DNA of 64,000 nucleotides from Patescibacteria group bacterium (GTDB taxonomy: Bacteria; Patescibacteriota; Microgenomatia; PFEM01; JAHIFH01), in the NCBI GenBank assembly GCA_035529375.1, contig DATKWU010000009.1, positions 19,092-83,091 on the forward strand. The letters run 5' to 3'. Below, in pieces: positions 6,556 through 16,909 of the stretch; position 1 is the stretch's first letter; each line of letters begins with the position of its first letter. A program made the position numbers and the translations under genes. The notes beneath the pieces are model-generated. The model was not told where the DNA came from and did no database searches. It saw only the letters and a list, made by a program, of their open reading frames with translations.

Positions 6556-8118
6556 ATGAAAAATAACCAAAATCCCAAAACGAATCATGGCGTCCCCATA
6601 ACAAACTACCAGGAGCTTGCGGTAATTGCTAAGGAAAGTACCATCTCTTTCTCAGGAAATATTTTGGGAAGAGGAATGGGGCTTATTATCACCTTACTTC
6701 TGGCTCGATTATTTGGCGCCACCCTTTTTGGTATTTATAGCCTGGGGCAGGTGATATTTAATTTTAGCGCTACCATAGCCTGTTTTGGCTTAAGTTACGG
6801 AGCGATAAGATTTGTTTCTACGAATCTGGCTAAAAAGGACCAAGCACGAGTAAAAGGCGCCCTGTTTGAGGTTTCGGTGATTCCGTTAGTTTTAGGAACT
6901 TTTATCGCCCTCATTCTTTACCTTGGCGCAGAAAAGATTGCCCTCCTTTATGGCAAGCCAGAGCTTTTTCGGCCCCTAAGATTATTCGCTTTTGGGGTTC
7001 CTTTTTTCTCTTTATTTCAAGCTTTAAGTAGCGCCACCAGGGGTTTTAAAACAACCAAATACACAGTTTTAGGCGAAAAAATAATTACTCCTTTCCTCAA
7101 TATTTGTTTGATTATTCTTTTTTATTACTTTGGCCTTAAAATATTTGGCATGATTGGAGCATATATTATGTCAATCATCTTCGGGGCTTTGTTTTTTCTC
7201 TCCTCCCTTAAAAAGCTCTTTCCTAAGATAGTTATGGGTGAACTGAAGCCAAAATTTAGGACAAGAAAAATCCTGAAAACCTCTATCCCCTTAACTTTAT
7301 CCTCTACTCTCTTCTTTTTGGTTGCCTGGACAGATATTTTTATGGTGGGATATTTTTTGCCTACAGTAGAGGTAGGTGTATACAGACTGACAACCTTACT
7401 TTCTTCTCAGGTAATAGTTTTTCTTTTAGCCATAAATGCCATTTTCACTCCATTTATTTCAGAATATCATCAAGGGAAGAAGATAAAAGAACTAGAAAGC
7501 TTATATAAGGTTGTCACCCGCTGGGCTTTTTATTTTGCTTCTTTAGTTTTTCTTATTATTGCTATCGCTCCAAGAGAATTACTGCAAGTTTTTGGTGAAA
7601 ACTATATTTTGGGAAAAAATAGCATGATAACTCTTGCGGCGGGCCACTTGATAAGTGCGGGGGTGGGATCGGTGGGGTTTATCTTGATTATGACTGGTTA
7701 TCAAAACTGGGAATTGATCAATTCGCTAATCTTATTTATATTGACTCTGGCTACAAACATTATCCTCATTCCCCGTTTTGGTATTATCGGCGCTGCTATT
7801 GCCACTGCTTTTTCAATTGGTCTTATTAATATCGTTCGTCTCATAGAAGTTTATAAGACCTTAAAAATTCAGCCCTTTAATCTAAAATACTTTGAAGGAA
7901 TATTGGCAGGAGTAGTAACTTTTTTATTGGTTTCGGGTTTGAAAAATTATTTATTTACCAATTTCCACTATCTTGTCAGCCTCATGTTATCTCTATTATT
8001 TGTCCTAACAACATTTTCCCTACTTCTGCTGATTTTCGGTTTGGAGAAAGAAGACAGAGTTATATTAAATAAAATAAAACACAAGCTATGGCAAGGAAAA
8101 TTTTGGTCATTGGTTTAG
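6556..8118 (+). CDS. Wzx-like oligosaccharide flippase (polysaccharide biosynthesis protein, MOP superfamily)
   Basis: 520 aa with about 14 TM helices and the typical PST-family N-terminus (KESTISFSGNILGRGMGLIITLLLARLFGATLFGIYSLGQ). Confidence 0.75.
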   Translation: MKNNQNPKTNHGVPITNYQELAVIAKESTISFSGNILGRGMGLIITLLLARLFGATLFGIYSLGQVIFNFSATIACFGLSYGAIRFVSTNLAKKDQARVKGALFEVSVIPLVLGTFIALILYLGAEKIALLYGKPELFRPLRLFAFGVPFFSLFQALSSATRGFKTTKYTVLGEKIITPFLNICLIILFYYFGLKIFGMIGAYIMSIIFGALFFLSSLKKLFPKIVMGELKPKFRTRKILKTSIPLTLSSTLFFLVAWTDIFMVGYFLPTVEVGVYRLTTLLSSQVIVFLLAINAIFTPFISEYHQGKKIKELESLYKVVTRWAFYFASLVFLIIAIAPRELLQVFGENYILGKNSMITLAAGHLISAGVGSVGFILIMTGYQNWELINSLILFILTLATNIILIPRFGIIGAAIATAFSIGLINIVRLIEVYKTLKIQPFNLKYFEGILAGVVTFLLVSGLKNYLFTNFHYLVSLMLSLLFVLTTFSLLLLIFGLEKEDRVILNKIKHKLWQGKFWSLV

Positions 8119-9743
8119 ACGGAATGCCTGAAAGCCTAATTAAAAAATTAGGCAAACAGGGTATTATCCCTAATTTGTATCGCCTCTATAAAAAGGGCGT
8201 GTTTGGTAGTTTGGAAAGCACTATGCCCCCTATCACCGCTCCTGCTTGGGTATCTTTCGCTACGGGGGTTAATCCTGGAAAACATGGTTGTTTCAATTTT
8301 CTCAAATTATCTAAAGGTTCACTCAGCGTTAATAGGGCTATCACTTCTCGAGATATTAAATCTCCAACCCTTTACGAGATTCTTAATCTTCAAGGAAAAA
8401 AATCTATTCTAATCAACCTTCCAGTTTCTTTTCCTCCTATAACCAATGACATAATTTTAACCAGCATAATGTCTCGAGGAGAAAACTTTATTTTTCCCCA
8501 GTCGCTAAAAAAGGAAATGCCCATTTTAAAAAAATATCGAGTTAGTCCAAATCCTGAGATTGCTGCTTATGGAAGCAGAGAAAAGTTTGCTACCGAGGTG
8601 AGAAGAATCGAAAAAATTAGGTTTGACTGTGCTAAGCAATTATTTCAGAAGAAGGAATGGGATTTTTTCTTTTTATTAATCAGTAGTCCTGATTGGATTC
8701 AGCACAAATGTTTCGATAGGCTTGTTTCGGGTAAAATTTCTAAAAATTCAGAGTCTTGTAATATCTATCAAGACATTGACAAATCTCTTGGTTGGTTTTT
8801 AGAGAATATCAAAGACGACACCTCTTTAATTATTATTTCCGACCACGGTTTTAAAGTCTATGAAGGCTTCTTTTATGTTAACGCCTGGCTCCATAAAGAG
8901 GGTTTGCTTCAACTTCAAAAAGTGCGCGAAGATTTTGTCGAGACTCCAATCAGCCGATTAGCCGAGGAAAAGAGTTTGGCTAAGAAAAAGAAGAAAAGAA
9001 TTAAAATCGAAAGGTTATATAATTTTTTAGTCCGCCACCCATTCCTGTTTCGCAAAATCACCCCCTCATATCGTTACATAAAATCATTATTGCCTTTTTA
9101 CTTTGACCTCTCGGCTACCCAGAGACCGGATATTCCCTCTTCCAAAGCAGTATCCATTTCTATTGGGGCTAACGACATATACTTTCATGATAAAAACCGT
9201 TTTTCCGATGGACTATTAAGCGCTGATGCATATAGAAGGTTGTTGAAGGAAGTAAAAACAGAGCTTAGTCAATTAAAATCTCCGCTATCTCGAGAGAAAC
9301 TGTTCAAAAAGGTTTTTGCTAAAGATGAAATCTATTCCGGCGACTATACCTCATTTGCTCCCGATTTATTGTTGGAAGAAAAATCTTTTAAAACCAGCAA
9401 AGAGACAAGGCCAGCAATATTCTCTATTCAAATAGTTAATAGTCACTCTCCAGATGGAATCTTTATCGGCTACGGTTCCGAGTTTGTGAAAGGCAAAAGA
9501 ATTAAAAATCTCAAAATTTTTGACATCGCTCCTTTAATTCTCCATCTATTAGATATTCCCATTCCTAAAAACATGGATGGCCGGATTAGAAGGGAGCTCT
9601 TTGATAAAGACAGCTTCATGGCTAAACGGGCCATTAAAACTCAAAGCTATAGAATTAAAAAAACATTCCCCAAAAAATATAAAGAGGGAAAGGAGGATAC
9701 AGAAGAGGTTAAAAGACGTCTAAAGACGCTTGGATATTTCTAG
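8088..9743 (+). CDS. Alkaline phosphatase superfamily protein (type I phosphodiesterase / nucleotide pyrophosphatase-like, PF01663-type)
   Basis: N-terminus ILVIGLDGMPESL...IPNLYRL...MPPITAPAWVSFATGVNPGKHG matches the metal-ligand/nucleophile region of the NPP/AP family. 551 aa. Tandem paralog of the next gene. Confidence 0.7.
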   Translation: MARKILVIGLDGMPESLIKKLGKQGIIPNLYRLYKKGVFGSLESTMPPITAPAWVSFATGVNPGKHGCFNFLKLSKGSLSVNRAITSRDIKSPTLYEILNLQGKKSILINLPVSFPPITNDIILTSIMSRGENFIFPQSLKKEMPILKKYRVSPNPEIAAYGSREKFATEVRRIEKIRFDCAKQLFQKKEWDFFFLLISSPDWIQHKCFDRLVSGKISKNSESCNIYQDIDKSLGWFLENIKDDTSLIIISDHGFKVYEGFFYVNAWLHKEGLLQLQKVREDFVETPISRLAEEKSLAKKKKKRIKIERLYNFLVRHPFLFRKITPSYRYIKSLLPFYFDLSATQRPDIPSSKAVSISIGANDIYFHDKNRFSDGLLSADAYRRLLKEVKTELSQLKSPLSREKLFKKVFAKDEIYSGDYTSFAPDLLLEEKSFKTSKETRPAIFSIQIVNSHSPDGIFIGYGSEFVKGKRIKNLKIFDIAPLILHLLDIPIPKNMDGRIRRELFDKDSFMAKRAIKTQSYRIKKTFPKKYKEGKEDTEEVKRRLKTLGYF

Positions 9744-11022
9744 ATTTAACATCACGATGGAAAAAAGAACAGTTATTATCGGCATTGATGGTGTCCCTTT
9801 TGGTTTGATGAACAATTTATCGGAAAAAGGGGTAATGCCTCATTTTAAAAAATTAAAAAATGAAGGTGTTTTTAAAAAAATGCGTTCTTCTATTCCACCC
9901 ATTTCGTCTATCTCCTGGATTTCAATTATTACTGGTAAAAATCCTGGTGAACATGGAATTTTTGGTTTTATGGAACTTATGCCTAAAACTTATACTCTTC
10001 ACTTTCCTAATTTTAATGATGTCCAAGAAAAACCCTTTTGGTTAAAAAAGAGGAATAAAAAATTTGCTATTATTAATGTTCCCTCCACTTATCCACCCAA
10101 ACCTCTTAATGGTATTCATCTCTCTGGTTTTATCTCCCTAGATTTAGAAAAAGCTGTTTACCCTCCTGAGCTCTTTCCTAAATTAAAAGAAATGAATTAC
10201 CAAGTCGATGTTGATTCGAGCCTAGCCCACCAATCAATGAGCCTTTTCCTTAAGAAACTGAACGAAACCCTTGAAGCTCGGATTGAAGCTTATCGTTATC
10301 TTTGGAAAAAAGAAGATTGGGATGTTTTTATGTTTGTTTTTACTGGTACTGATCGAATTGGCCATTTTCTCTGGGATGCTTATCGAAATAAAAATCATCA
10401 ATATCATGCCGATTTTCTTGATCATTTTAATAGAATCGATAAAGTGATTGGGGAGATTAGTAAAAAACTAAGAAAAGATGATTCTTTGTTTATGCTTTCT
10501 GATCATGGTATGGGAAAAATGAAAGCTAATGTTAATATTAATTATTTCCTAAAAAAAAGAGGTTTTTTAGATCTTGACAAAAATCTCAAAAGCTATAATC
10601 AGATTACTGAAAAAACCAAAGCTTTTGCCCTCGAGCCAGCTAGAATTTATATTCATCGACAAGGAAAGTATCCTCGAGGAAAAGTAAATAAATCACAAAG
10701 AGAAAAAATTACTAAACAATTAGTCGAGGCTTTTAACTCTCTAAAATACGAAAATCGAAAAGTAATTAAAAAGATTTATCATAAAGAAGAAATTTACCAA
10801 GGAAAATGTTTAAATCAAGCACCAGATCTGGTCCTGTTACCTCGATCTGGATTCCGCTTTCGAGCTAATATTGATAAAGAAACTCTTTTTGAAAAAGATG
10901 TTTTTTCTGGAGAACATACTTTAGATGATTCTTTCCTCTTTGTTAGAAGTCCGCAAATAAGAGATTTACCAGAAAATCTAACCGTAGAAGATTTTGTGCC
11001 TCTTTTAGAAAAAACTTTCTAG
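9730..11022 (+). CDS. Alkaline phosphatase superfamily protein (type I phosphodiesterase / nucleotide pyrophosphatase-like), paralog of the preceding gene
   Basis: VIIGIDGVPFGLM...MPHFKKL...IPPISSISWISIITGKNPGEHG carries the same signature as 8088..9743, plus a later DRIGHF histidine motif. 430 aa. Confidence 0.7.
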   Translation: MDISRFNITMEKRTVIIGIDGVPFGLMNNLSEKGVMPHFKKLKNEGVFKKMRSSIPPISSISWISIITGKNPGEHGIFGFMELMPKTYTLHFPNFNDVQEKPFWLKKRNKKFAIINVPSTYPPKPLNGIHLSGFISLDLEKAVYPPELFPKLKEMNYQVDVDSSLAHQSMSLFLKKLNETLEARIEAYRYLWKKEDWDVFMFVFTGTDRIGHFLWDAYRNKNHQYHADFLDHFNRIDKVIGEISKKLRKDDSLFMLSDHGMGKMKANVNINYFLKKRGFLDLDKNLKSYNQITEKTKAFALEPARIYIHRQGKYPRGKVNKSQREKITKQLVEAFNSLKYENRKVIKKIYHKEEIYQGKCLNQAPDLVLLPRSGFRFRANIDKETLFEKDVFSGEHTLDDSFLFVRSPQIRDLPENLTVEDFVPLLEKTF

Positions 11023-11023
11023 A

Positions 11024-11052
11024 TTGCCAATGAGAGTAAAAATGTGTAAGAT
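11024..11052 (+). promoter_or_regulatory. Candidate sigma70-like promoter TTGCCA-17nt-TAAGAT, predicting a near-leaderless transcript for the ORF starting at 11063
   Basis: Direct reading: ttgcca at 11024-11029 and taagat at 11047-11052 with 17-nt spacing. The ATG at 11063 lies about 4-5 nt downstream of the predicted TSS. Confidence 0.3.
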
Positions 11053-11062
11053 ATAAACGATT

Positions 11063-12628
11063 ATGGCCAAACAAATTAAAAAAACTAGAAAAAAAGTAAA
11101 AAAAATGAAGAGAACAACATTTGTTTGTCACAATAAAAACAAAACTTGTTGGAATTGCCCGGCGGCTATCTTTAAGGGTAATGTTGATTTCCGCGCTTGT
11201 GGTCAAGAAAAAAAGGTTGAAAGTTTAAGAGAAGATGGTCAAATCGTGATTGAATGTTCCCGAAGACCTAAACTTGGTCATTATGAACCCAATATTACCT
11301 TTGAACAATGTCCAGAATGGGAAAAAACGAAATATGGTTATCTTCTCAAAAATATGAGAGTGATGATCTTGGGTATTGATGGCTATTTGGGATGGACATT
11401 AGCCCTAAAATTAGGCAAATTAGGTTTTCAAGTAAGCGGAATTGACAACTATACGCGACGAGATTCTGTTATGGAGAGATGCGCCCACACAATTGTTCCT
11501 ATTGCTCGAATGACTAAACGTCTCAAGACAGCAAGAAAAGTATTAGGGATTGATATTAACTTCCGGAAAATGGATATTTGTGATATTGAAAATCTAAAAA
11601 TTTTCCTTGAAGAAGAAAAACCAGAGGCAATTGTTCACTACGCAGAAATCCCTTCAGCTCCGTATAGTATGATCGATGTTGATCATGCCATCCAAGTCCA
11701 AAAAAATAATGTTATTGGTACTCTGGGACTCCTATGGACAATGAAGGATATCGTCCCCAATGCTTCCTTGATTAAATTAGGTACTTTGGGAGAATATGGC
11801 GCCCCATTAACAGGCAGGCCTCTTTTCGAGGGCATGTTCCCGGCTGATGCGATTTTAAAATGGGATAACCGAGAATGGAGCCTTGGAGGTGAATTAACCC
11901 CTCGAGATCCAGTCAGCCTTTACCATGTCAGCAAAGTTCAAGATACTTTTAATGTCTATGAGGCTTGTAAATATTGGTGGCTTCGGTCTTATGACGTCAT
12001 GCAGGGAGTGATTTACGGCGTTCATACTCAAGAGGTCTCAGCTAACCCTAAACTCCGCACCCGGTTGGATATTGACGAATGGTTTGGAACAGTTGTCAAT
12101 AGATTTGTTGCTCAGGTTATTTTAGGCCTTCCTTTAACTATTTATGGCAGTGGCAGTCAAATAAGAGGAATGATTGCTTTAGAAGATGCCATGGAATGTA
12201 TGGTCCGGTTAATTGCTTCGCCGCCTGAGCCAGGTCAATACGCCGTTGTCAATCAAATTTCTGGCCTTCATAAAATAAGCGAATTGGCTGAAACAATTGC
12301 TGAAGTAGGTAGGAAAAAATTTGGTCTGAAAGCAAAAATTCAGAGATTGGAAAATCCTAGGGTTGAAACTGAAGAACACCCTTTTGAAGTTGTCTCCAGA
12401 AATCTTCCTCAATTAGGTTTCAAACCAAAAGTTAGTTTGGAAAAAGAAATTACCAGAATGTTTAAACTTTTAACCAAACGGGAGATTAAAGAAAGAATCA
12501 AGGCCAAAGCTCAACTAGTTTGGCCTAAAACAAGATGGTCAGGAGAAAAAAGAAAATCTGAAGTATTAGAGATATACAAGCCAGGAACTAAAAAAGTAAA
12601 AGGCTATAAAGGCAAACTAGATATCTAA
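11063..12628 (+). CDS. sqdB: UDP-sulfoquinovose synthase (SQD1/Agl3 family, SDR superfamily) with about 97-aa Cys-rich N-terminal extension; alternative start at 11354 (MRVMILG)
   Basis: Strong colinear matches to SQD1 motifs: MILGIDGYLGW (Rossmann GxxGxxG), HYAEIPSAPYSMID, NNVIGTL, KLGTLGEYGAP, VSLYHVSK (catalytic YxxxK), VMQGVIYGVHT, RTRLDIDEWFGTVVNRF, GLPLTIYGSGSQIRG, ENPRVETEEH. The N-terminal 97 aa (C22, C29, C32, C46, C65, C83) has no SQD1 counterpart. Confidence 0.85.
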   Translation: MAKQIKKTRKKVKKMKRTTFVCHNKNKTCWNCPAAIFKGNVDFRACGQEKKVESLREDGQIVIECSRRPKLGHYEPNITFEQCPEWEKTKYGYLLKNMRVMILGIDGYLGWTLALKLGKLGFQVSGIDNYTRRDSVMERCAHTIVPIARMTKRLKTARKVLGIDINFRKMDICDIENLKIFLEEEKPEAIVHYAEIPSAPYSMIDVDHAIQVQKNNVIGTLGLLWTMKDIVPNASLIKLGTLGEYGAPLTGRPLFEGMFPADAILKWDNREWSLGGELTPRDPVSLYHVSKVQDTFNVYEACKYWWLRSYDVMQGVIYGVHTQEVSANPKLRTRLDIDEWFGTVVNRFVAQVILGLPLTIYGSGSQIRGMIALEDAMECMVRLIASPPEPGQYAVVNQISGLHKISELAETIAEVGRKKFGLKAKIQRLENPRVETEEHPFEVVSRNLPQLGFKPKVSLEKEITRMFKLLTKREIKERIKAKAQLVWPKTRWSGEKRKSEVLEIYKPGTKKVKGYKGKLDI

Positions 12629-12632
12629 AAAA

Positions 12633-12944
12633 ATGGATATTTCTACTAGCGAATTCTCTAAAGAGGTCTTAGAATCAAAAACTCCTGTTTTGGTTGAATT
12701 TTGGGCTTCTTGGTGCCTTCCCTGCCAGACAGCCAATTCTTTGTTAGAAGAAATTAAAAAGGAATATAAAAAGAAAATAAAAGTTATTAAAATAAACCTT
12801 GATAAAAATCCAACTTTCTCATCTAAATATAATGTTAAAGGCTTACCCACTTTTATGATTTTTAAAAAAGGAAAGGAAAAAGAAAGAAAGATAGGCGCTC
12901 AATCAAAAGACAATCTTTGTCAAATGATTGAGAAATTTATTTAA
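12633..12944 (+). CDS. trxA: Thioredoxin with atypical WCLPC active site
   Basis: 103 aa. VLVEFWASWCLPCQ plus the downstream GLPTFMIFKKGKE (cis-Pro loop region) is the thioredoxin fold signature. The canonical WCGPC is replaced by WCLPC. Confidence 0.85.
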   Translation: MDISTSEFSKEVLESKTPVLVEFWASWCLPCQTANSLLEEIKKEYKKKIKVIKINLDKNPTFSSKYNVKGLPTFMIFKKGKEKERKIGAQSKDNLCQMIEKFI

Positions 12945-12947
12945 AAA

Positions 12948-13892
12948 ATGAAAATCTTAATTACCGGCGGCTGTGGTTTTATTGGTGTCAATTTAGTCAA
13001 TTATTTACTCAAAAAAACAAATTGGCAAATTAATGTTTTAGATAATCTTAGTATTGGCAAACTTAAAGATTTAAAGACGATTAGTAAAAATTCCAAAAAA
13101 AGAGTTAATTTTTTCAAAGGCGATATTAGAAACAAAAAGGATGTTGAAAAAGCAATAGTTAATTGTCATTACCTTGTCCATTTAGCTGCCCAAACTGGTG
13201 TTATCTCTTCTCAAAAAGATCCTTTTCAAGACGCTGAAATTAATATTTTTGGAACACTCAATCTGCTAGAAGCAAGTAGGAAAAAGGGGTTAGAAAAATT
13301 TATTTTTGCTTCATCTGCCGCTCCGTTAGGCGAACAACAACCACCTCTTGATGAAAAAAAAGTCCCTCAGCCCCTTGCTCCTTATGGAGCTAGTAAATTA
13401 GCTGGTGAAGGCTATTGCAGCGCCTACGCTGGTTCTTTTGGCCTAAAAACTACTGCTTTGAGATTCTCTAGCGCCTATGGTCCCTGGTCTTATCTAAAAG
13501 GAAGTGTTGTCGCTAAGTTTATTAAACAAATAATAAATAAAGAAGCCGTCACTATTTATGGGGATGGTGAGCAAACCCGAGACTTTGTTTATGTTGAGGA
13601 TATTTGTCAGGCTATTTATTTAAGTTTAACCAAGAAACTTACCAATAATTTTAATCTTTTCCAGATTGGAACAGGAAAAGAAACAACTGTTAATAAATTA
13701 TTTCAATTATTAGAAAAAGAATTCTCAAAAAGGAATTACAAGGTGATAAAACCTAAATATGAAAAATCAAGACCAGGTGAAATTAAAAAGAATTATACTA
13801 ATATCTCTAAAGCTAAAAAAATCCTCGATTATAAGCCTCAAACAGAACTTACTGAAGGAATTAAAAAAACGCTTGATTGGTTTCTAAAATAA
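12948..13892 (+). CDS. NAD-dependent nucleotide-sugar epimerase/dehydratase (GalE/UXS-like SDR)
   Basis: MKILITGGCGFIGVNLV (GxxGxxG), PYGASKLAGE (YxxxK), GDGEQTRDFVYVEDI are typical of extended SDR sugar epimerases. 314 aa. Confidence 0.85.
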   Translation: MKILITGGCGFIGVNLVNYLLKKTNWQINVLDNLSIGKLKDLKTISKNSKKRVNFFKGDIRNKKDVEKAIVNCHYLVHLAAQTGVISSQKDPFQDAEINIFGTLNLLEASRKKGLEKFIFASSAAPLGEQQPPLDEKKVPQPLAPYGASKLAGEGYCSAYAGSFGLKTTALRFSSAYGPWSYLKGSVVAKFIKQIINKEAVTIYGDGEQTRDFVYVEDICQAIYLSLTKKLTNNFNLFQIGTGKETTVNKLFQLLEKEFSKRNYKVIKPKYEKSRPGEIKKNYTNISKAKKILDYKPQTELTEGIKKTLDWFLK

Positions 13893-13980: not shown

Positions 13981-15822
13981 ATGTTGATAATAATCAAGAA
14001 GTCAATAAAATATATTTTTCTAATTTTAGGAGTTTCGATTATTTTCCTGTTTAATATTTGGTTAATTAACCAGGGTTCTGGTTTCACTATTCCTAGAGAG
14101 CTTCTTTTCCGAACTCAAGCTGACATCATGAAACCTCTTATTGCCTTTCCAGTTATCCTTGTTTTCTTATTGTTAATCAATAAGTTATTCTCTTCAAAAA
14201 TTAAAAAACTTAGTCATAAACAAAAAACGATTTTAATCTTCCTTTTTTGTTTAGTTTCTGCTTTCAGTCTTTCTTGGACTGTTCAAACAAATCCCGATTC
14301 AGGAACATATCTCGTTGAGTCCAATTATTTAGTTAAAAACGGTGTTATCAAATATTTCAGAGACTGGGGAACTTTTAGTTGTCGATTGACGATGCCAGTA
14401 ATGCCTTTCTTATACGGAACGTCTTTTAAATTAATCAGCAATAAAGCAATAGCCGTAATCCTAGTTAATTTATTAATTTTTCTGGGAATAATTGTTAATA
14501 CTTATCTAATTGGCCGCAGGCTCTTAAATAGTAGAGCGGCCATTTATATAATCATCTTATTTTCAACGACACCCTTTATTATTACCCAATCTCATTTGAT
14601 GCTACTTGATCTCGGCCTGACATTTTTTTTAAGTCTATCTTTTTATTTAATTCTGAAAAATATTGATGAACCTTCATATAAAAAAGGTTTATTAGCAGGT
14701 TTGATATTCTTTATCGCCTCTCTAACAAAAGCAACCGGAATACTTTATTTAACCGCTTTATTCTTATCGTTCTTAATCTGGATTATTATTTGTCAAGAAA
14801 ATAAAAAAACGATCATTTGTTATCTTTTTTCATGGATAACAATGGGTTTCCTTGATCTTATTTATGCTATCTGGAAAAAAGATCTTTATTTTAAAACTTT
14901 AATTACTAATAAGGATATTATTCCCGCTTTTCTGCCCTTAATAATTGTAGGATTATTTTTATTATTAAGCCTTCTATTTTTAATTAAAGGCTATTGGCCC
15001 AAACTCAAGAAGAAGCAATTAAACAAATTTTTTTTAATCGGGATAATTATCTTTTATCTGATTATCTCATTGCTATTTTTATGGGGAGGAAAAAAGGCTT
15101 TTTATCTAAGAACAATATTTATTGGCACTAATATTCCTATCGCTCTCCTTTTTTACTCATCTTTTTATTTTGCTTACAAAAAGAAATTCATGGTACCAAT
15201 AATCTTGATTCCTTGGTTAGCAACGGTAAATTTTATTCATTTTACGATGTTTAAGCATCAACTTTATTCTTATCCAGTAATATTATTACTAGCTGTTTTT
15301 TCTTTAACTTCGTTTTTTAAAAACAAGCAAAAACAAATCAGAGCCATGTTAGTCATCCTTGCTTTTTCTTTGACAATTACCTACTTTTTCTTTTTACCAA
15401 TGATTAATAAGCATGTCAAAAACAATATTAGAGATAGTGTTAGATATGTAAACCAATACGAACCACAAGAAGTTGTTGTTCTTTTTTTCCCTGTAGGGGA
15501 ATTGGGAGAGATGTTTCAAAAGTCACTTGAAAGAACCAGTCGATGCCCTCAACCGCCAAGCATTACTGATTTAATGGCTTTTTATACCAATACTCCTATT
15601 ACTTACGAAAAAACAGACGATTTTATCAACAAATTAGAAAATGGCATCCAGCCCGAGGCTGTATTTTTAGTCTACCATCTCGATCTTCCTGTTGTTGAGA
15701 ATAAAAAGTTAGAAGCCCTGTTAAATGAAAATTATATTGAAGGGCCAATGTTCGACGAAAATAGAGGAGCGGGCGTCTGGCATGTCAAAATTAAGCTTTA
15801 TTACCCTTCAAGGCAAGAATAG
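13981..15822 (+). CDS. Polytopic membrane protein, putative GT-C-type glycosyltransferase with C-terminal soluble domain
   Basis: 613 aa with more than 12 TM segments. The motif IASLTKATGILYL resembles the TK(P)xGIL loop shared with the GT-C-like ORFs at 54856 and 18849. About 130 aa at the C-terminus are hydrophilic. Confidence 0.5.
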   Translation: MLIIIKKSIKYIFLILGVSIIFLFNIWLINQGSGFTIPRELLFRTQADIMKPLIAFPVILVFLLLINKLFSSKIKKLSHKQKTILIFLFCLVSAFSLSWTVQTNPDSGTYLVESNYLVKNGVIKYFRDWGTFSCRLTMPVMPFLYGTSFKLISNKAIAVILVNLLIFLGIIVNTYLIGRRLLNSRAAIYIIILFSTTPFIITQSHLMLLDLGLTFFLSLSFYLILKNIDEPSYKKGLLAGLIFFIASLTKATGILYLTALFLSFLIWIIICQENKKTIICYLFSWITMGFLDLIYAIWKKDLYFKTLITNKDIIPAFLPLIIVGLFLLLSLLFLIKGYWPKLKKKQLNKFFLIGIIIFYLIISLLFLWGGKKAFYLRTIFIGTNIPIALLFYSSFYFAYKKKFMVPIILIPWLATVNFIHFTMFKHQLYSYPVILLLAVFSLTSFFKNKQKQIRAMLVILAFSLTITYFFFLPMINKHVKNNIRDSVRYVNQYEPQEVVVLFFPVGELGEMFQKSLERTSRCPQPPSITDLMAFYTNTPITYEKTDDFINKLENGIQPEAVFLVYHLDLPVVENKKLEALLNENYIEGPMFDENRGAGVWHVKIKLYYPSRQE

Positions 15823-16909
15823 AACCTGATAACAAAACCCAAAAAATTAAGAAATTAACTACTAATGTTAAAAAGCCATCAGTAGCAATGTTTATTTCAA
15901 TATAAGCTGAAGAAAATTCGATTACCTGCCTACCTATTTGTAAAATCAAAAAAAGAGCTAAAACAATTGTAAAAAAATTTTCTGCTACTTCAAAATTGAA
16001 AACCGGCTTTCTTCTAAACAGATGAAAGAGATAAAAGAAAAAGGGAACGAAAAAAAATAAATCTGCTAAAATAAAATTAAGACTGCTGGCTATATTGATA
16101 AACTTCTTAAATAAAAAACGAACCAGAATTAATTTATTGGCTAATAATTGTTCTTGATCAAAATGGTATTTAACCCTAAAAATGGGAAACTGAGGACTAA
16201 TAGCGACTGCGTTCTCGGGCTCTCCTTTAGTTGACTCTATCTCAAAGTGGTAAATTTTCCTATTAGAATTTTCAATTTTCGGAAAACCAAAAGGAAACAA
16301 TTCATCGGGCTGGAATTGGTCAACCTTATATTCATTTTCATAATACCAAGATTCATTACCCTTTTCTTTTAGTCTGAAAATCAAAACATCATCATTAATC
16401 CTACCAAAGGTATTAAAACGAATGGAAATTATTCCTAAATTATCTTCATAAGCAGTAAATTCTCCATCGATTTTTTCGCCAGTTAATAATTCATTTGTTT
16501 TCCAAGAAACTAAACTAGTCCGTTTCTGATCTTGAAATAAAATTGGCAAAGCTTCACCAGAATTAAAAACATTAATAAAGGAAAAACCTAGGCCTAAGAA
16601 TAATAAAAAACCCGGTATTAAAGACCAAGCTACCCATTTCTTATTTATAAATTGCTTAATCTTTCTACTTAAAACAGTTAACTGATTAAAAAAATCTTTC
16701 TTGATTATTTCAAATTCTTTAAAGCCCCTAGCCTCAACTACAATCAGAACTATCAATAATAAGCCAAGTGAGAAAATTATTCTCGCCAAAAGAGAAACAT
16801 CTAAATCTAAACCAAGTCTCAGCTTATCTGCAAGGACTAAACTTACAGAAACGAAAAGAAGAGCACCAAGAAATCTTTTTAAATAATCTATAATTCGTTT
16901 AAACATCAT
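15791..16909 (-). CDS. Hypothetical membrane protein with central soluble domain
   Basis: 372 aa. TM segments at both ends flank about 170 aa of soluble sequence. One soluble segment (YHFEIESTKGEPENAVAIS) resembles FYLESPESNVNDAVEI in ORF 28085..28732. Confidence 0.5.
   Translation of the reverse strand: MMFKRIIDYLKRFLGALLFVSVSLVLADKLRLGLDLDVSLLARIIFSLGLLLIVLIVVEARGFKEFEIIKKDFFNQLTVLSRKIKQFINKKWVAWSLIPGFLLFLGLGFSFINVFNSGEALPILFQDQKRTSLVSWKTNELLTGEKIDGEFTAYEDNLGIISIRFNTFGRINDDVLIFRLKEKGNESWYYENEYKVDQFQPDELFPFGFPKIENSNRKIYHFEIESTKGEPENAVAISPQFPIFRVKYHFDQEQLLANKLILVRFLFKKFINIASSLNFILADLFFFVPFFFYLFHLFRRKPVFNFEVAENFFTIVLALFLILQIGRQVIEFSSAYIEINIATDGFLTLVVNFLIFWVLLSGSILALKGNKA

Follow-up and report, generated by a model that had tools for sequence, protein, structure and literature searches.

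An apparently new five-cysteine domain fused to an SQD1-like enzyme in a three-gene cassette, with a possible role as a metal or redox adaptor

An N-terminal extension with five conserved cysteines

The 64,000-nt stretch of DNA analyzed here (hereafter the window; contig DATKWU010000009.1 of a Patescibacteria group bacterium) carries on its forward strand an open reading frame (ORF) of 521 amino acids, at positions 11063-12628, in which a 97-residue N-terminal extension precedes a core homologous to SQD1, the UDP-sulfoquinovose synthase of Arabidopsis. Work on UDP-sulfoquinovose synthases has treated them as stand-alone enzymes that use free sulfite. The core begins at M98 (ATG 11354, MRVMILG), and the 97 codons that precede it (11063-11353) are open throughout, are Lys-rich at their start and include six cysteines (C22, C29, C32, C46, C65 and C83), all of which bears out what a sequence-only reading of the locus had described. 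The gene lies between two others on the same strand. Upstream is AP430 (9730-11022), a member of the PF01663 alkaline-phosphatase superfamily with the type I phosphodiesterase/nucleotide pyrophosphatase fold (Pfam, 2.3e-46), and 4 nt past the stop codon of the SQD1-like gene begins a thioredoxin with a WCLPC active site (12633-12944; TIGR01068, 110.8 bits versus a cut-off of 96.8).

Alignments of fused and stand-alone sequences define residues 23-97 of the extension (11129-11353, + strand) as a module that is conserved in homologs of both domains of life. The best 120 homologs listed come from Patescibacteria, Thermoplasmatota, Asgard, DPANN and other archaea and, four intein-bearing proteins excepted, are 461-547 aa long, cover 88-98% of the query and are 68-83% identical to it. 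In alignments of 20 and 116 sequences, the module opens with His23-Asn24 and follows the pattern HNxxKTCWNCPAAxFKGNVDFRACGQ ... (I/A)ECxRRPELGxFEPxITFEQCPEW..YGYxLK, which runs directly into MRVMILG. Its five cysteines (C29, codon 11147-11149; C32, 11156-11158; C46, 11198-11200; C65, 11255-11257; C83, 11309-11311) are invariant or nearly so in the 116 fused sequences and in a set of 41 fused and stand-alone sequences, as are about 25 further positions of the module. The cysteines are spaced C-x2-C-x13-C-x18-C-x17-C in the window protein, with the middle spacer varying among homologs. Mean pairwise identity is 0.67 for residues 23-97, 0.75 for the core, which is a member of the SDR (short-chain dehydrogenase/reductase) superfamily, and 0.52 for a C-terminal tail. 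At the nucleotide level, the relative at locus L014 differs at 10, 8 and 42 first, second and third codon positions, corresponding to 34 synonymous and 14 nonsynonymous codon changes, and differences are concentrated at third codon positions in five gap-free aligned relatives. Judged from these alignments, codons 23-97 specify a real protein domain that is under strong constraint and belongs to a family not described before. Because these residues are conserved and the differences pile up at third codon positions, a start at ATG 11354 is refuted on the comparative evidence. The ortholog comparison that the sequence-only reading had proposed gave a matching result, in that the extension is conserved and no aligned homolog among the best 120 listed starts at the methionine equivalent to that of MRVMILG.

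The long form of the protein, which that reading had favored, stands insofar as the Cys-rich stretch is translated as part of the protein, but its first 22 residues, including C22, are not conserved, and the exact start codon is ambiguous. This variable, Lys-rich leader (11063-11128, + strand) finds almost no alignment partner among 115 homologs. Homologs begin 1-12 aa ahead of the module-opening His-Asn; the leaders of close relatives comprise 1, 11 and 12 residues. Two candidate starts are present. ATG 11063 (M1) is the first start codon past the upstream stop, lies 40 nt after it and yields the 22-aa leader; it is favored by the tight or overlapping spacing of the relatives' genes to the gene upstream. 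ATG 11105 (M15) would give an 8-aa leader and is favored by the leader lengths of 1-12 aa in relatives. No Shine-Dalgarno sequence is visible before either codon, and translation could possibly initiate at one or the other. A promoter-like sequence just upstream (TTGCCA-17-TAAGAT, 11024-11052) had been taken as a further argument for the long form. The hexamers do exist (9 of 12 matches), but such sites are not enriched between 9500 and 13000, where 6 were found versus 10.5 +/- 2.9 in shuffled sequences, and we therefore rejected the site as evidence on the start. The promoter argument is also weak because the gene is part of a cassette that is tightly packed and probably co-transcribed.

No match to the module was found among Pfam, NCBIfam and PDB profiles, and a fold search returned no significant match. 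The sole Pfam listing was Ephrin_rec_like (E=0.2; 11.9 bits versus a cut-off of 23.1), with none at E<=0.1. An exhaustive hidden Markov model (HMM) search of 1.84 billion representative proteins yielded 42 matches only, which correspond to this fusion, its fragments or small stand-alone proteins, and to no other enzyme architecture. A weak HMM match (E 1.7e-8) to a repetitive 1083-aa protein was judged spurious. The earlier proposal of a zinc-ribbon-like or ribosomal-protein-like module was rejected, since the module contains one CxxC and three isolated cysteines rather than two knuckles, and neither a Pfam or NCBIfam profile nor a significant fold match supports it. An iron-sulfur (Fe-S) or other metal site is plausible. 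In three sequences that lack C46 (P0146, P0139 and P0172), a new cysteine occurs two residues ahead of C29, which looks like the relocation of a metal ligand.

The SQD1-like core and the gene cassette

The core (residues 98-492; 11354-12538, + strand) was assigned by its NCBIfam match, by alignment with SQD1 and by Foldseek. Matches to the Pfam families Epimerase and GDP_Man_Dehyd, together with a GIDGYLG NAD-binding motif, place it in the extended SDR fold. The Arabidopsis SQD1 structures 1i24 and 1qrr were matched at 268 bits in an alignment that stops at residue 493, and a Foldseek search with the AlphaFold model returned 1qrr as the best match (E 1.8e-35, TMt 0.85), with GalE next at 6e-18. 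The catalytic residues are T241, Y287, H288, K291 and Q314, the first four of which align with Thr145, Tyr182, His183 and Lys186 of SQD1 and are invariant in 116 sequences; a family-specific insert occupies approximately residues 243-285. The protein ends in a family-specific tail that is missing from SQD1 (residues 493-521 and the stop codon; 12539-12628, + strand; WSGEKK..LE.Y.PG....GY.G.L), with W492, G494, E503, Y505 and G508 conserved. By these comparisons, the protein is clearly homologous to SQD1, SqdB and Agl3, and carries what appears to be a new domain family.

Four of the best 120 homologs listed carry inteins, which are known in archaeal sugar-nucleotide enzymes, and LAGLIDADG_3 (PF14528) is on record for two of them (P0025 and P0129). 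The inserts in P0025 and P0108 measure approximately 330-350 aa and occupy two different sites, both within catalytic motifs: between YH and SK of YxxxK in P0025 (residues 288/290 of the window protein, ~11926-11932), and between KLG and the catalytic Thr in P0108 (residues 240/241, ~11782-11785). P0074 and P0129 are likewise approximately 840-850 aa long. An SDR-type role resembling that of ribonucleotide reductase, suggested by the cross-domain conservation, the inteins and the neighboring thioredoxin, was considered and rejected, as every context is one of glycan biosynthesis, SQD1 is the clear closest relative and the literature offers no support.

Scanning one genome per species for the motif gave 96 genomes and 80 loci, nearly all metagenome-assembled and distributed over more than 20 phyla of bacteria and archaea. 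In all 80 loci the module is fused to the SQD1-like SDR. A thioredoxin gene follows directly on the same strand in 65 of the 66 loci with enough sequence, and in 61 of 68 an AP430-type PF01663 gene directly precedes the fusion in the same orientation, with one nearby in at least some of the others (e.g., L072, L085 and L089). Intergenic gaps within the cassette have a median of approximately 0 nt, and the gene order is identical in Asgard and Thermoplasmatota loci. As judged from gene order, the fusion protein is shown to be the middle member of a tightly packed and laterally spread cassette that consists of the PF01663 enzyme, the module-SQD1-like protein and thioredoxin. Carriage by viruses or mobile elements was rejected as the cause of this spread, as no module was found in IMG/VR. 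No paper on the domain, the subfamily or the cassette turned up in a search of the literature.

The partner genes show distinctive conservation patterns of their own. In 74 AP430 orthologs, D20, S59, D208, H212, D258, H259 and H396 are invariant, so that the metal ligands and Ser nucleophile typical of alkaline phosphatases (AP) are intact; AP430 has no conserved cysteine. The cassette thioredoxins retain WCxxC in 67 of 71 cases, and the canonical WCGPC occurs in none; the active sites are instead WCPPC (21), WCTAC (18), WCVPC (10), WCLPC (9), WCIPC (5), WCPVC (3) and WCAPC (1), suggesting a dedicated subfamily whose redox potential is shifted. In many loci a GalE/RmlB-like SDR gene lies directly or closely downstream. 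This frequent fourth member of the cassette is represented in the window by a 314-aa NAD-dependent sugar epimerase/dehydratase (12948-13892, + strand; Pfam and NCBIfam matches).

The module is also encoded on its own. Stand-alone modules are divergent proteins of 62-87 aa that contain the same five cysteines and end just past the CPEW..GYxLK hairpin, and their occurrence elsewhere indicates a genuine domain fusion in the window protein rather than an annotation artifact. The sequence-only reading had considered a small gene fused in frame, and in the evolutionary sense this was correct. It had also named a separate stop and start in relatives as grounds for doubting the fusion; such separate genes exist as a divergent arrangement, but no splitting is seen in any of the 80 fused loci. 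The stand-alone gene directly follows an AP430 ortholog in L005-L007, L009, L010, L011, L012 and L013, often with a 4-nt overlap. The PF01663 enzyme is therefore the module's most constant partner, and the module-SDR fusion reads as a Rosetta-stone link that would connect AP430, the module and the SQD1-like enzyme.

The only stand-alone module without a preceding PF01663 gene (L008, 548-790) overlaps a 172-aa ORF for which no Pfam match is on record; next come genes for a UbiA prenyltransferase, an MCM helicase and a PDDEXK nuclease, a setting that looks like an archaeal mobile element. Behind stand-alone modules on two unrelated contigs lie small proteins of one family (L006, 1815-2012; L011, 6430-6645 and 6855-7061) that share the motif ..YTTVSIPK.L..KV..R..GTGF.S.S.(Y/F)V.YVLR.. 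and, to judge from sequence, may be of the ribbon-helix-helix (RHH)/CopG kind; these could be a regulator or another partner of the AP430 and module pair.

A second PF01663 paralog in the window (551 aa; 8088-9743, + strand; Pfam match) ends in ...EEVKRRLKTLGYF and displays a feature that recurs at the extreme C terminus of unrelated cassette proteins, namely the sequence (I/V)K(K/R)RL(K/R/E)xLGY[FLIM]-COOH behind a run of acidic residues. Besides this paralog, the carriers include extended thioredoxins, short CysD proteins, another AP paralog, one module-SDR and small RHH-like proteins. The tail was seen in 18 ORFs in 93 loci and once in the window (9705-9743), versus approximately one occurrence expected by chance (a rough estimate). 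Examples are found at L014 9510-9896, L023 9531-9935, L026 3758-4177, L025 4649-5449, L019 3420-4220, L084 3428-4240, L071 3839-5362, L091 5837-7414, and L011 6430-6645 and 6855-7061. To judge from its sequence, the shared tail may be a common docking peptide. Radical-SAM genes, one of a twitch-domain and one of a B12-binding type, lie beside the cassette at L025 9844-10854 and L001 13740-15134; the enzymes may be sulfatase-maturase-like or sugar-modifying.

Much of the window constitutes one glycan/cell-surface biosynthesis island with GT2, GT1 and GT4 glycosyltransferases, flippases and methyltransferases. At least 8 GT2 matches were obtained in 33 ORFs scanned outside 700-26000, and the window also encodes several GT1/GT4 proteins, at least 7 PMT_2-type glycosyltransferases, and PTPS_related and GT87 membrane proteins; Pfam gave no match for three ORFs, those at 696-1802, 1821-2726 and 15791-16909. 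Among the other cassette loci, sulfatase-fold and sulfotransferase genes are common neighbors, and genes for sulfate activation are present in several arrangements. With the fusion abbreviated as ModSDR and thioredoxin as Trx, a colinear operon CysD-CysN-AP430-ModSDR-Trx occurs in L025 (Saccharibacteria) and L019 (Patescibacteria), and CysN-AP430-ModSDR-Trx in L084. A divergent CysD/CysN/AP430 set faces ModSDR-Trx in L085 and L089, CysD and CysN/C lie downstream in L044, and Sat plus adenosine 5′-phosphosulfate (APS) kinase are found in L016, L028, L030, L036 and L071. In L011, it is the stand-alone AP430 and module pair that is surrounded by TauE, ATP sulfurylase and APS kinase. CysDN or Sat/APS kinase lie no more than 8 kb away in 14 of the 80 loci (10 of the 35 loci of at least 12 kb). 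A scan of 148 neighboring ORFs gave three PAPS_reduct and three GTP_EFTU matches. Because these counts fit the CysD/CysN pairs of L014, L025 and L044, none of the three PAPS_reduct matches looks like CysH, and no canonical CysH was seen among the 148 ORFs.

Possible functions of the module and its partners

On balance, we slightly favor an interpretation in which the new five-Cys domain, fused to the SQD1-like enzyme within the three-gene cassette and translated from ATG 11063 or 11105, is a metal or redox adaptor that couples its partners. The module would be metal-binding, redox-active or both, with the likeliest arrangement of its cysteines being an Fe-S cluster or zinc on four of them and one to spare. 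It would form a physical link from the sugar-nucleotide active site to the PF01663 enzyme and, by disulfide chemistry, to the dedicated thioredoxin. A more specific scheme is possible but doubtful, and draws on analogy with sulfonucleotide reductases, in which thioredoxin releases sulfite from an enzyme Cys-S-SO3- intermediate by an established mechanism (PMC1175818). By this scheme, AP430 would pass the sulfuryl group of APS or 3′-phosphoadenosine 5′-phosphosulfate (PAPS) to a module cysteine to give Cys-S-SO3-, thioredoxin would free sulfite beside the SQD1-like site, and that site would add it to UDP-4-keto-glucose-5,6-ene, yielding UDP-sulfoquinovose for the surrounding glycan-synthesis island. 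Sulfuryl transfer by AP430 is proposed because sulfate-activation genes are frequent neighbors of the cassette and no canonical CysH was seen. That the whole would amount to a CysH-independent, self-contained and sulfite-channeling "sulfoquinovose factory", spread laterally among candidate phyla radiation (CPR), DPANN, Asgard and other anaerobes, seems to us more speculative still, and we would not expect it to hold in full.

Several observations weigh against the adaptor interpretation and its sulfite-relay version. Nucleotide pyrophosphatases of the AP fold usually attack phosphorus, which yields sulfate and not a transferable sulfuryl group. Neither a thioredoxin nor an SQD1-like gene is adjacent to the stand-alone AP430 and module pairs; it is thus the fused SDR and not the module that thioredoxin goes with, and the pair must have a use beyond sulfoquinovose synthesis as well. 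The 64-kb window contains no sulfate-activation genes, and where such genes do accompany the cassette they might serve the O-sulfotransferases of the same glycan clusters. AlphaFold2 (AF2) models of the module are only moderately confident, with a pLDDT of 75 for the module alone and below 50 for residues 36-73 in the full-length protein. The core scores 416.4 bits with the NCBIfam model for UDP-sulfoquinovose synthase (NF041015), under its equivalog cut-off of 575, and the Arg of the EQRSAPY motif (R101), which is essential in Agl3, where the R101A variant is inactive (PMC4388408), is replaced by Pro197 (AEIPSAPY), a residue that is nearly invariant in the family. Because of this score and this substitution, the product may not be UDP-sulfoquinovose.

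The best-surviving alternative, although we regard it as unlikely, is that the module is a purely structural, zinc-binding or disulfide-stabilized domain for oligomerization or for docking to the PF01663 protein, with no catalytic or redox role. Thioredoxin would then keep thiols reduced or serve another step, and the substrate of the PF01663 enzyme would be the sugar nucleotide or the completed glycan, on which it might work as a phosphodiesterase or phospho-sugar transferase, for instance. Small Cys-rich domains are indeed mostly zinc sites, but the single CxxC with three isolated cysteines fits neither a zinc ribbon nor a treble clef, no zinc-finger family of Pfam matches, and the number of conserved cysteines is five, not four. 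The extra PF01663 paralogs and the sulfatase-fold genes that are common in glycan clusters do suggest glycan-modifying roles, the SDR core retains all that is needed for the use of free sulfite, and the stand-alone pairs manage without thioredoxin or SDR; a dedicated, non-canonical WCxxC thioredoxin, probably translationally coupled, that follows in 65 of 66 loci would, however, be hard to explain for a site of purely structural function.

Appreciably less probable is a second alternative, in which the enzyme is not a sulfoquinovose synthase but forms some other hexose, C6-modified or 6-deoxy. In that case two electrons, or thiol or persulfide sulfur, would pass from the module and thioredoxin to the 4-keto-5,6-ene, with a product such as UDP-quinovose or a 6-thio sugar. 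The bit score and the Pro substitution described above are as this alternative would have it, as are the family's own long insert and C-terminal tail, yet SQD1 is far closer than any other relative and the equivalent of its His183 is retained. The hosts are anaerobes of sulfidic sediments, where sulfite is scarce, and the window itself is devoid of sulfate-activation genes; against this, such genes stand directly in the operon in several phyla, and TauE, sulfatase and sulfotransferase neighbors indicate oxidized sulfur chemistry. Finally, we give practically no credence to the view that the extension lies outside the protein, with a start at MRVMILG and an upstream frame that is non-coding or a wrongly merged small gene: an equivalent Met does start SQD1, SqdB and Agl3, and module genes do stand alone elsewhere, but the junction is free of stop codons here and in all 80 of the genome loci, purifying selection acts strongly on the module in frame with the core, and in the AF2 model a β-hairpin (residues 86-95) leads directly into strand β-1 with high confidence.

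A whole branch of the UDP-sulfoquinovose-synthase family thus carries an undescribed Cys domain; its hosts are mostly uncultivated anaerobes of more than 20 phyla, and the function of the cassette as a whole is the interesting question raised by this new domain family on an SQD1-like enzyme. If the coupling that we favor is true, it would establish the new protein domain family, assign a function to a large orphan clade of PF01663 and possibly reveal a new sulfonucleotide-reducing chemistry, and sulfonated surface glycans would be predicted in CPR, DPANN and Asgard lineages. Even on a conservative view, the annotation is corrected, as the protein is not a plain epimerase/dehydratase and its N-terminal 75 residues merit a domain model.

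Comparison with known enzymes and domains

The window protein shares with SQD1, SqdB and Agl3 (1qrr, 1i24) the NAD-binding Rossmann and UDP-sugar domains and equivalents of the catalytic Thr, Tyr and Lys, of His183 and of Gln209, and its gene resembles archaeal Agl3 in its glycan-synthesis context. Unlike these enzymes, it adds a 75-aa five-Cys domain at the N terminus, a tail of approximately 30 aa at the C terminus and a longer insert after the catalytic Thr, has Pro in place of the motif Arg R101 and scores under the NCBIfam equivalog cut-off. In its family the gene also has, in nearly every case, a PF01663 gene on one side and a thioredoxin gene on the other, an arrangement that to our knowledge has not been described for sqdB or agl3 operons. 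As a small Cys-rich unit at a protein terminus, the module is reminiscent of zinc ribbons and treble-clef fingers, but it has one CxxC knuckle and the second is missing. It was also compared with the high-potential iron-sulfur protein (HiPIP) and with the small, HiPIP-like subunits that carry [4Fe-4S] in glycyl-radical enzymes (PDB 1isu, 2y8n_B and 9o8u_F).

The comparison with CysH is one of functional analogy only. Unlike CysH, the PF01663 enzyme and the module have neither the fold nor the homology of PAPS_reduct (PP-loop) proteins, with no match to PF01507 in either the 521-aa protein or AP430, and the nucleotide-binding part would instead have an alkaline-phosphatase fold. As with CysH, a thioredoxin gene is adjacent, ATP sulfurylase and APS kinase are found as neighbors, and the predicted reaction would yield sulfite. 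APS reductases contain four Fe-S cysteines and one catalytic cysteine in an E-C motif; the module, similarly, has five conserved cysteines, one of which lies in an invariant (I/A)-E-C-x-R/K-R motif.

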